From IMG/VR virus record IMGVR_UViG_3300024991_000003: 54,953 nt of DNA; one strand, 5' to 3'. This document shows, one piece after another, positions 24,918-25,716 of this stretch. The DNA comes from a virus. A program made the translations under genes and the position numbers. Below the pieces are notes generated by a model. It made no database searches. It was not told where the DNA came from and saw nothing but the letters and a program-made list of their open reading frames with translations. Positions within the stretch are counted from its first letter, which is position 1; the number at the start of each line of letters is the position of its first letter.

Positions 24918-25336
24918 ACGCGAGCCAATACCACCACAGACCAACAACCATGTTTACCGCCGCGCACCAATGGTGTTGGATACCAAGCCGGATCATGGAT
25001 AACTTTGCCGTCTTGACAAATCACCACATGATCACCGCCGCTGGCAGTCTCACCGAAAAGCATATACGGAACACCAGTACCGAGTGCTTGGAGCAATTCA
25101 TCTCGCGATGTGTCGGGATCATAGTTGGACCACCATGAGCATAACCCATGATGGCATATCAACCATGTATCCATACGATCCCGCACAGTTTCCGCATCGG
25201 CTCCATCATGCGCAAAATGCGGCACCAATTCCGGGCTGTTTTCCATGTCAAGAATGGATGCAACGCAAGCGCGCAAACAATCACCGTATGTCCCGCGATC
25301 AGGGTCATGTGAGATGCGACAAAATACAGGTGTCAT
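24914..25336 (-). CDS. hypothetical protein, possible papain/C39-like cysteine peptidase (140 aa)
   Basis: YGDC(20)LRAC near the N-terminus, then GGDH(103)VVICQDGKVIHD(115)P: Cys-His-Asp order and spacing typical of C39-like folds. Confidence 0.35.
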   Translation of the reverse strand: MTPVFCRISHDPDRGTYGDCLRACVASILDMENSPELVPHFAHDGADAETVRDRMDTWLICHHGLCSWWSNYDPDTSRDELLQALGTGVPYMLFGETASGGDHVVICQDGKVIHDPAWYPTPLVRGGKHGCWSVVVLARV

Positions 25337-25716
25337 GTTAGTTCACCATAGTCGAGAAGAACGATACGACCATTGAGTTTGCCGAAATTATTAATTTTCC
25401 AATCAATCTTGTTAATACCGTACCATTGATGGGGATAATCTGGGTCTTCATCTTTAATTGCGTTGATTGTCATTTCCCAATATTCATCGGGTGTTAATTC
25501 TTCACAACGCGGCATGATAACTGCAAAACCACCCCAGCTTTTCCAAAGCACGGGGCAGAGATGCCAATGATCAGCAAGCACAGTGAAATTGTATTCTTCG
25601 ATGTTGCTTAAAATGCCGTGAAGAAAATGCACCCAACCGTTGCGGATAGACGGTGTTTTTATGGCGTATTTACCGATAAGCAATACGCTACGAGTGACGC
25701 CGTGTGCCAAGCGCAT
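25333..25716 (-). CDS. hypothetical protein with protein-kinase-like core motifs (127 aa)
   Basis: YAIK(20); NIEE(40-41); D(105)WK(107)INN(110) = D-x-K-x-x-N; LLD(122)YG = DFG-like; the protein ends 3 residues later. Confidence 0.4.
   Translation of the reverse strand: MRLAHGVTRSVLLIGKYAIKTPSIRNGWVHFLHGILSNIEEYNFTVLADHWHLCPVLWKSWGGFAVIMPRCEELTPDEYWEMTINAIKDEDPDYPHQWYGINKIDWKINNFGKLNGRIVLLDYGELT

Follow-up and report, generated by a model that had tools for sequence, protein, structure and literature searches.

The 54,953-nucleotide viral sequence of IMG/VR record IMGVR_UViG_3300024991_000003 (here called the window, meaning the whole stretch of DNA that was analysed) contains on its minus strand an open reading frame (ORF) of 127 codons, which runs from an ATG at 25716-25714 to a TGA at 25335-25333 and whose product is referred to below as a mini-kinase. 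The coding sequence (25333..25716, minus strand) was identified in the ORF list and in the sequence itself, and was assigned to PHROG family phrog_4301 and described as kinase-like on the basis of a profile match, an AlphaFold2 model and structural matches. Translation of 25333-25716 on the plus strand is closed by many stops. The gene is packed in a leftward operon between genes for a 203-aa protein (25718..26329) and a 140-aa protein (24914..25336). At the upstream junction (25714..25720, minus strand) the TGA of the preceding gene (25720-25718) lies 1 nt from the mini-kinase ATG, and a GGTGA Shine-Dalgarno-like element is found about 8 nt upstream of that ATG. At the other end the TGA shares an ATGA (25333..25336, minus strand) with the ATG of the downstream 140-aa gene, by its sequence an arrangement of translational coupling.

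A preliminary description of this DNA had proposed that the protein carries protein-kinase core motifs in the usual order and ends right after the last of them. All of the motifs were confirmed at the residues claimed, and all lie on the minus strand. A degenerate glycine-rich (phosphate-binding) loop, G6-V-T8-R9 (25690..25701), is located between strands 1 and 2 and was aligned with G-x-G-S-S-R of longer phrog_4301 members; G6 is conserved in 97%, T8 in 81% and R9 in 99% of the family, the Arg being family-specific. The equivalent of the beta3 'VAIK' motif with its ATP-anchoring lysine, Y17-A18-I19-K20 (25657..25668), falls in strand 17-22 of the model and was aligned with VIK of a bridge family of longer phage proteins described below (A18 93%, K20 100%). 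N38-I39-E40-E41 (25594..25605) lies within the alphaC helix, residues 28-47 of the model, and combines the invariant Glu that is the partner of K20 (E41, 100%) with a family-specific Asn (N38, 99%). The FAVIMPRCE segment, residues F64 to E72, covers the beta5 strand (66-69 in the model) with a Met at the gatekeeper position and then the hinge (F64-A-V-I-M68-P-R70, 25507..25527); M68 is conserved in 91% and R70 in 89%, and the segment was aligned with IVMER of the bridge family. The catalytic-loop equivalent D105-W106-K107-I108-N109-N110 (25387..25404; D-x-K-x-x-N) was found in register with HsDLKPaN of TTK, a match that is not significant alone, and with D-x-x-x-x-N of the bridge family. The GRIVLLD122-YG stretch runs from G116 and ends in the DFG equivalent D122-Y123-G124 (25345..25353), which contains the metal-binding Asp (D122 99-100%, Y123 96%, G124 87%) and is preceded by a beta hairpin, 111-114/117-120. 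Three residues, E-L-T, separate it from the stop codon, and the sequence confirmed that neither an activation segment nor C-terminal-lobe (C-lobe) helices are present. The motifs were assigned from conservation, supplemented by alignment for the glycine-rich and catalytic loops, by the model for the alphaC and DFG equivalents and by both for beta3 and beta5. We take G6-V-T8-R9 to correspond to G52..G55 of PKA, and V11, A18, K20, E41, M68, D105, K107, N110 and D122 to be the equivalents of PKA V57, A70, K72, E91, M120, D166, K168, N171 and D184.

The query matched phrog_4301, a PHROG listed with "unknown function", at E 2.2e-20, with residues 2-124 on profile positions 41-167 of 225, and other short and long members matched the same profile. 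The profile reaches 225 positions because longer jumbo-phage members belong to it. In an exhaustive HMMER scan the family comprised 771 clusters at 50% identity, almost all of 110-140 aa, and tblastn found homologues in 75 phage records, every one annotated as hypothetical. The carriers include the T4-like Dhakavirus and Tequatrovirus, N4-like phi G17, Seuratvirus Skure, jumbo phages of the PBECO4/G17 group, Erwinia Y3, Klebsiella Miami and Rhizobium RHph_I42. Hosts are spread over Enterobacteria, Aeromonas, Pseudomonas, Rhizobium and Shewanella, with prophages in Methylococcus and Aquimarina, and the few family members on bacterial chromosomes probably sit in prophages. A literature search found no paper describing the phrog_4301 mini-kinase family.

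In a 124-sequence alignment the only invariant columns were K20, E41 and D122, and these remained invariant or 99-100% conserved across sets of 124 to 269 homologues. G6, R9, V11, A18, P22, F31, G34, N38, P55, G63, M68, K107, G112, V119 and Y123 were conserved in at least 90% of the 124 sequences; E40 and N109 showed no conservation in the family. Position 105 was always acidic in the 124-269 homologues (E in about 65-75%, D in about 20-34%), K107 was conserved in 92%, and position 110 was S (62%) or N (35%). The catalytic-loop consensus of the family is therefore written [DE]-x-K-x-x-[NS], and the query has D105 and N110. The gap from 105 to 110 is 5 residues and that from 110 to 122 is 12 residues in 255 of 269 homologues, the latter as in the aligned TTK. 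Conservation of K20, D105, N110 and D122, on which the earlier proposal had been made to depend, was thus observed, with D105 and N110 kept only as D/E and N/S. The residues at positions 105 and 110 were coupled, the pair being E/S in 194, D/N in 52 and mixed in 14 (about 5%) of the 269 homologues. Such coupling would be expected if both side chains share one active site, and it is suggestive of a shared-site signal. The two active-site flavours, D-x-K-x-x-N and E-x-K-x-x-S, each arose by about 22 inferred switches on a tree that is poorly resolved, and compensation between the two positions may be involved.

The short C-terminus was found throughout the family. The tail after DYG has a median length of 1 residue, is at most 5 residues long in 231 of 267 homologues and exceeds 30 in only 5. 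A search for longer or fused relatives of the form of about 120 aa found none, a Pfam scan of the extensions of the rare members that have one detected no domain there, and fusion was almost never seen. Truncation right after DYG is the native norm of the family.

An AlphaFold2 model built from the family alignment had a predicted local distance difference test score (pLDDT) of 91.8 and a predicted template modelling score (pTM) of 0.83. It consists of strands 2-5, 9-14 and 17-22, helix 28-47, strand 66-69, helix 76-88 and the hairpin 111-114/117-120, with a less confident loop at 89-107. Of the protein-kinase-like (PKL) fold, the N-terminal lobe (N-lobe) of five beta-strands plus helix C, the hinge, the catalytic loop and the hairpin ahead of the DFG equivalent are predicted in the model. 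The residues that mark the superfamily were found at canonical spacing, namely the beta3 Lys, the alphaC Glu, the catalytic acidic residue, the metal-binding N/S and the DFG Asp. The helical C-lobe, with its activation segment and helices F-I, is not present, and in extent the predicted fold matches the first two-thirds of a protein kinase. The protein was predicted on its own as a kinase N-lobe and catalytic core, and not as the unrelated fold that the preliminary description had considered evidence against its proposal.

Top matches of the model in a Foldseek comparison with the PDB were all kinase-like (Kae1-Bud32, PRPK, TTK, Ark1, RIO2 and RIO1), with, for the minimal atypical kinases, an E of about 1e-3 and a query-normalised TM-score of about 0.6. 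In the VIA all-against-all comparison, all 50 of the 50 top matches were kinase-like folds over residues 1-127. The Z-scores were 7.7 for APH(2''), 7.4 for RIO2 and RIO1, 7.3 for Bud32, 7.0 for Ark1, 6.7 for ArkI and 6.2 for OspG. These values are moderate, and the weight of the result is carried by the uniformity of the matches and their full-length coverage. Many small phage proteins of the same shape are present in BFVD, some of them named protein kinases.

Sequence searches with the query gave no match in Pfam, NCBIfam or PADLOC scans. Among PDB sequences neither phmmer nor a profile search gave a significant match, TTK (E 0.71, in register) coming closest. Comparison with kinase-family profiles, a check the preliminary description had put forward, was divided in its outcome: no Pfam kinase model was matched at E<=1 by the query or by 124 family members (scattered noise only), but longer phrog_4301 relatives did match kinases. 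Jumbo phage SP27 encodes a second ORF, of 195-213 aa, with a weak Pkinase match, and the bridge family was composed of seven such proteins of Rak2-like jumbo phages (SP27, PBECO4, RaK2, SE_PL, Munch, Muenster and CBB; 168-197 aa), labelled 'putative protein kinase' in several GenBank records. Like the query they belong to phrog_4301 (E 1e-25 to 1e-41). An hhalign comparison of the family of about 120 aa with the bridge family gave a probability of 95.4% and E 1.8e-8 over 116 columns that span the full length, with all motifs in register. Pfam Pkinase was matched by 5 of the 7 bridge proteins (best E 5.7e-6, below the gathering score) and PF18762 by one of the seven (E 0.021), and the bridge profile matched 1093 PDB kinase sequences, among them MKK4 at 8.7e-7 and MST1/2 at 2e-5 over almost the full length.

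The bridge proteins share with the mini-kinases the motifs G-x-[ST]-R-x-V, [AV]-I-K, N-x-x-E, V-M-x-R, acidic-x-x-x-x-N-x-G and D-[YF]-G. They also stop early, 2-29 residues after D[YF]G, and are likewise uncharacterised. They differ in several respects: about 30-50 aa of helical lead are added at the N-terminus, the P-loop has the canonical G-x-G, the helical insert that separates hinge and catalytic loop is longer, and the catalytic loop is without the conserved Lys; in addition they are recognised by Pkinase and PDB kinase profiles, whereas the type of about 120 aa is not. Asteriusvirus jumbo phages hold a short (about 123 aa) and a long (about 195-213 aa) phrog_4301 paralogue about 42 kb apart, in SP27 (LC494302.1) at L006:2986-3357 (short) and L014:1186-1827 (long), and some relatives have two places for the long form. 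A coincidental order of motifs, which the preliminary description had allowed for, is excluded by the fold, the family-wide residue conservation and this sequence bridge to canonical kinases.

It had also been proposed that the protein is an extremely reduced kinase or nucleotide-binding module that needs a partner for the rest of the fold, with the products of the adjacent genes 24914..25336 and 25718..26329 named for a complex prediction. The reduced module held up. Completion of the fold by these neighbours was not supported: only the mini-kinase gene recurred when nine phage loci were compared, and no neighbour was conserved. A relative of the source phage (an IMG/VR contig with proteins 45-66% identical) has the mini-kinase at a different position, and homologues of the 140-aa neighbour were found largely in phages other than the mini-kinase carriers. 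In the Rigallicvirus phages P106B and RHph_X2_24 the operon is kept, with homologues of the 203-aa and 140-aa proteins and a helicase (53% identity), and the slot of the mini-kinase is empty or filled by an unrelated 76-aa ORF. The family hidden Markov model (HMM) found nothing in this operon of P106B and RHph_X2_24; in the control on the window it gave 3.3e-49. The operon thus occurs without the mini-kinase, and a split enzyme, of which this gene would be one half, is therefore rejected. The mini-kinase is instead a mobile accessory gene that was added to the replication operon of a Rigallicvirus-like siphovirus of about 55 kb. The neighbours were rejected as fold-completing partners on these grounds.

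The 140-aa protein (24914-25336, minus strand) is a member of phrog_5845, of unknown function, and shows an N-terminal Cys where a helix is predicted to start, followed further on by a His/Asp pattern. The gene for it lies directly upstream of the helicase in P106B and RHph_X2_24 (37-40% identity), and because of this conserved position it pairs with the helicase and not with the mini-kinase. No IMG/VR relatives of the protein were found, and a single-sequence AlphaFold2 model (pLDDT 45) was not used. The 203-aa protein (25718-26329, minus strand) is encoded by the first gene of the operon, occupies the same operon position in Rigallicvirus (29-31% identity) and had no Pfam, PHROG, NCBIfam or PADLOC match.

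The window as a whole looks like a complete or near-complete siphovirus genome of about 55 kb, with genes for terminase, portal, major head protein, tape measure, tail fibre, DNA polymerase, primase, a superfamily 2 (SF2) helicase, a DUF2800 exonuclease and a gp2.5-like single-stranded DNA-binding (SSB) protein. Megablast of the window against 50,697 phage records gave no match and no near relative. The replication operon, in the region 22000-29400, is syntenic with that of Rhizobium Rigallicvirus phages, relative to which the window has as extras the mini-kinase, a phrog_2072 gene of 117 aa and a DUF4031 gene. The largest ORF (11405-14812, minus strand, 1135 aa) had no PHROG match at E<=1e-5. 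The gp2.5-like SSB/annealing protein (28372-29373, plus strand) ends in a long tail of low complexity with many P, Q, M and G residues.

Two T4-like phages carry the homologue near RNA-related genes. In Dhakavirus JS10 the homologue (L001 2992-3360) is directly upstream of RNA ligase 2, and in the Tequatrovirus Shigella phage ESh17 (L008 2992-3372) it is about 900 bp upstream of a tRNA cluster. These placements are suggestive of an RNA-related role, and they do not recur in other lineages.

Kinase domains without a C-lobe have been described before. The Kinase-PolyVal domain (PF18762), of Ser/Thr/Tyr type, of phage and prophage polyvalent proteins lacks the C-lobe and has its active-site residues intact (Iyer et al. 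2017, PMC5512222). It resembles the mini-kinases in the loss of the C-terminal subdomain, in the retained ATP-binding and phosphotransfer residues and in the existence of stand-alone versions, it too is a computational prediction, and it was among the nearest named ESM Atlas clusters (0.92). The PF18762 HMM was matched by none of the 124 members at E<=1. Kinase-PolyVal is marked by a Glu ahead of strand 2, by a Gln in the final strand of the N-lobe and by an insert that separates the catalytic His from the Asp. With an inferred column mapping, these markers were not found in the mini-kinases: residues 1-10 contain no conserved Glu, Met occupies the beta5 position in 91% and Gln in 7%, and no His is conserved ahead of position 105, the consensus there being P-V-[ED]. 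Kinase-PolyVal is found in prophages of Verrucomicrobia, Chlamydia and Bacteroidetes, whereas the mini-kinases are carried mostly by proteobacterial lytic phages and are almost never fused.

The nearest named ESM Atlas cluster (0.93) was that of the T7 gp0.7 kinase (T7K). Its core domain spans residues 1-242, with the DFG equivalent DPV at 213-215; the purified domain is active with no sequence-motif preference, and the enzyme disarms host defence systems (PMC13645617). T7K is an early or accessory phage kinase whose core, as in the mini-kinases, ends soon after the DFG equivalent. It differs in an N-terminal extension of about 65 aa, in about 27 residues after the DFG equivalent, in a usual C-terminal DNA-binding shut-off domain and in the motifs D-x-H-x-x-N and DPV, compared with [DE]-x-K-x-x-[NS] and DYG in the mini-kinases. 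T7K belongs to other PHROGs (2828/15752; Pfam PF27024), whereas the query and other members match only phrog_4301. The family of about 120 aa gave no significant hhalign match to T7K alone or to an 8-sequence T7K profile, and the bridge family gave a weak, in-register alignment to T7K over 143 columns (P 7e-4). The jumbophage T7K homologues reported from Munch and G17 (PMC13645617) may not be the bridge family genes, judging from DP- versus D[YF]G. Salmonella phage CHRF_10037 (Kayfunavirus, L030 151-882) encodes a T7K homologue that is a complete stand-alone protein of 243 aa without the shut-off domain.

Bud32/PRPK, RIO1/RIO2, ArkI/Ark1 and OspG matched the model best over residues 1-127, and none of them has a classical activation loop. 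They differ from the mini-kinases in that the DFG equivalent is followed by 35-100 residues of C-lobe helices, and no sequence-level similarity of the mini-kinases to Bud32, RIO, ArkI or OspG was detected in the phmmer and profile searches against PDB sequences. ArkI keeps subdomains IX and XI and has an HGQ triplet, a DFE metal loop and a C-terminal helix with YKR (PMC9095486); the HGQ, DFE and YKR motifs of ArkI/Ark1 are all missing from the mini-kinase family. phrog_4301 is a separate clade in which the reduction has been carried furthest.

The explanation we place first, at about even confidence, is that the mini-kinase is a stand-alone, natively C-lobe-less member of the PKL superfamily and an active protein kinase of low specificity. 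The rating joins what was observed (the ORF, its conservation, the predicted fold, the homology to kinases and the lack of a linked partner) to ATP binding, catalysis, substrate class and role, which we infer. The protein has Hanks subdomains I-VII only, with N-lobe, hinge, one helix, catalytic loop and DFG-equivalent hairpin. The Lys-Glu pair K20-E41, the putative catalytic D105 with K107 and the candidate metal ligands N110 and D122 are kept, and because these nucleotide and phosphotransfer residues are retained, the protein would be expected to bind Mg-ATP and to transfer the gamma-phosphate. The activation segment and helices F-I, all parts that position peptide substrates, are missing, and with these elements gone the protein would most likely be a low-specificity protein (Ser/Thr/Tyr) kinase, working by itself or in oligomeric form. 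If its role parallels that of T7 kinase, it may modify host or phage proteins early in infection, in takeover or counter-defence.

Several results weigh against an active kinase. Most members have Glu in place of the catalytic Asp and Ser in place of the metal-binding Asn, the histidine of the HRD motif is missing and the P-loop has a single glycine; the chemistry may therefore differ or be weak. R9 in the one-glycine P-loop and G112 at the adenine-floor position are, together with the Glu/Ser majority and the missing HRD His, features that possibly mean altered chemistry. The failure of every Pfam kinase model with the query and the 124 members counts in the same direction, as do the structural Z-scores below 8, a range in which the VIA tool warns that matches may reflect a common arrangement. 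The tree-controlled test of 105/110 covariation was underpowered, with only 2 independent pairs on supported branches. Even T7K keeps about 27 residues past its DFG equivalent, and we know of no solved structure of a kinase core without helix F.

The alternatives differ mainly in what the retained residues would be used for. The protein could be an ATP-binding switch, an ATPase or a regulator of the pseudokinase kind, that needs to dock on an unlinked, probably host, partner in order to work. The partner would stabilise or complete the missing C-lobe, and the output would be ATP hydrolysis or inhibition of the partner and not substrate phosphorylation. Such dependence on a partner has precedents in Bud32 (on Kae1), the RIO kinases (on pre-ribosomes) and OspG (on E2~ubiquitin). 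The closest solved folds are those of just these partner-dependent atypical kinases and ATPases (Bud32/PRPK, RIO1/2, OspG), the family is without any peptide-substrate-binding elements, and the family-specific conserved surface residues R9, W28, N38 and R70 could form a docking site. However, no conserved phage-encoded partner was found, and with hosts this diverse a host partner would have to be universal. That the catalytic residues are all kept speaks for chemistry over mere binding, and T7K, with a similarly short core, is a bona fide kinase; we regard the switch as unlikely, though worth keeping in view. Less probable still, and in our judgement quite doubtful, is a kinase whose substrate is not a protein but a small molecule, a nucleotide signal or RNA, for instance by ArkI-like action on a 2'-OH or APH-like inactivation of a second messenger or antibiotic-like compound. 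APH(2'') was the top VIA match and ArkI/Ark1 were among the smallest good ones (Z 6.7-7.0), the JS10 and ESh17 genes adjoin RNA ligase 2 and a tRNA cluster, respectively, and the P-loop Arg (R9) and adenine-floor Gly (G112) are unusual for protein kinases. The RNA-repair and tRNA associations are, on the other hand, confined to single lineages, and small-molecule kinases of this fold form their substrate pocket from a large helical subdomain at the C-terminus, a part that the mini-kinases do not have. A median isoelectric point of 8.5 in the family would suit such a substrate, but the query is acidic at 6.0. A Lys in the catalytic loop is typical of Ser/Thr protein kinases, and K107, present in 92%, is of this kind; the sequence bridge, too, points to Ser/Thr protein kinases. 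The signature motifs of ArkI (PMC9095486) are, as noted above, missing.

That the ORF is an artefact, either a fragment of a longer kinase gene (a pseudogene or miscalled ORF) or a non-kinase protein with chance motifs, was suggested only by its unusual shortness and by the lack of a Pfam or NCBIfam match, and we consider it highly improbable. Homologues that end within 5 residues of DYG make up 231 of 267 and nearly all are of 110-140 aa; coupling of the gene to the neighbour on either side is tight, and downstream of it there is no leftover C-lobe coding sequence; invariance is confined to three columns, which hold exactly the kinase Lys, Glu and Asp; the kinase-like fold is confident, and a search for longer relatives found none. 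The size of the family and the length of its members, the invariant columns, the fold and the native tail effectively refute it.

Going one step beyond the active low-specificity kinase, we put forward tentatively, and with less confidence, that phrog_4301 proteins of about 115-130 residues are self-sufficient active kinases and the smallest known enzymes of the kinase fold, in which case subdomains I-VII would be enough for phosphotransfer, that they spread horizontally as promiscuous host-modifying or anti-defence weapons comparable to T7 kinase, and that D..N and E..S are alternative metal or substrate chemistries. Members are present in the tractable coliphages JS10, Skure, phi G17 and PaulHMueller, so that the question is directly testable, and it is timely, since recent work on T7 kinase has found that its promiscuous phosphorylation disarms bacterial defences. 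At a minimum, the annotation of hundreds of phage genes (phrog_4301) can be changed from "hypothetical" to kinase-like. If active, the mini-kinases would define, with about 120 residues and without activation segment or helix F scaffold, the minimal catalytic unit of this fold, and would be among the smallest kinase-type enzymes known, useful for studies of kinase evolution and for engineering. The family would then also constitute a very widespread class of phage effectors, found in T4-like, N4-like, Seuratvirus, jumbo and siphovirus genomes and in prophages.

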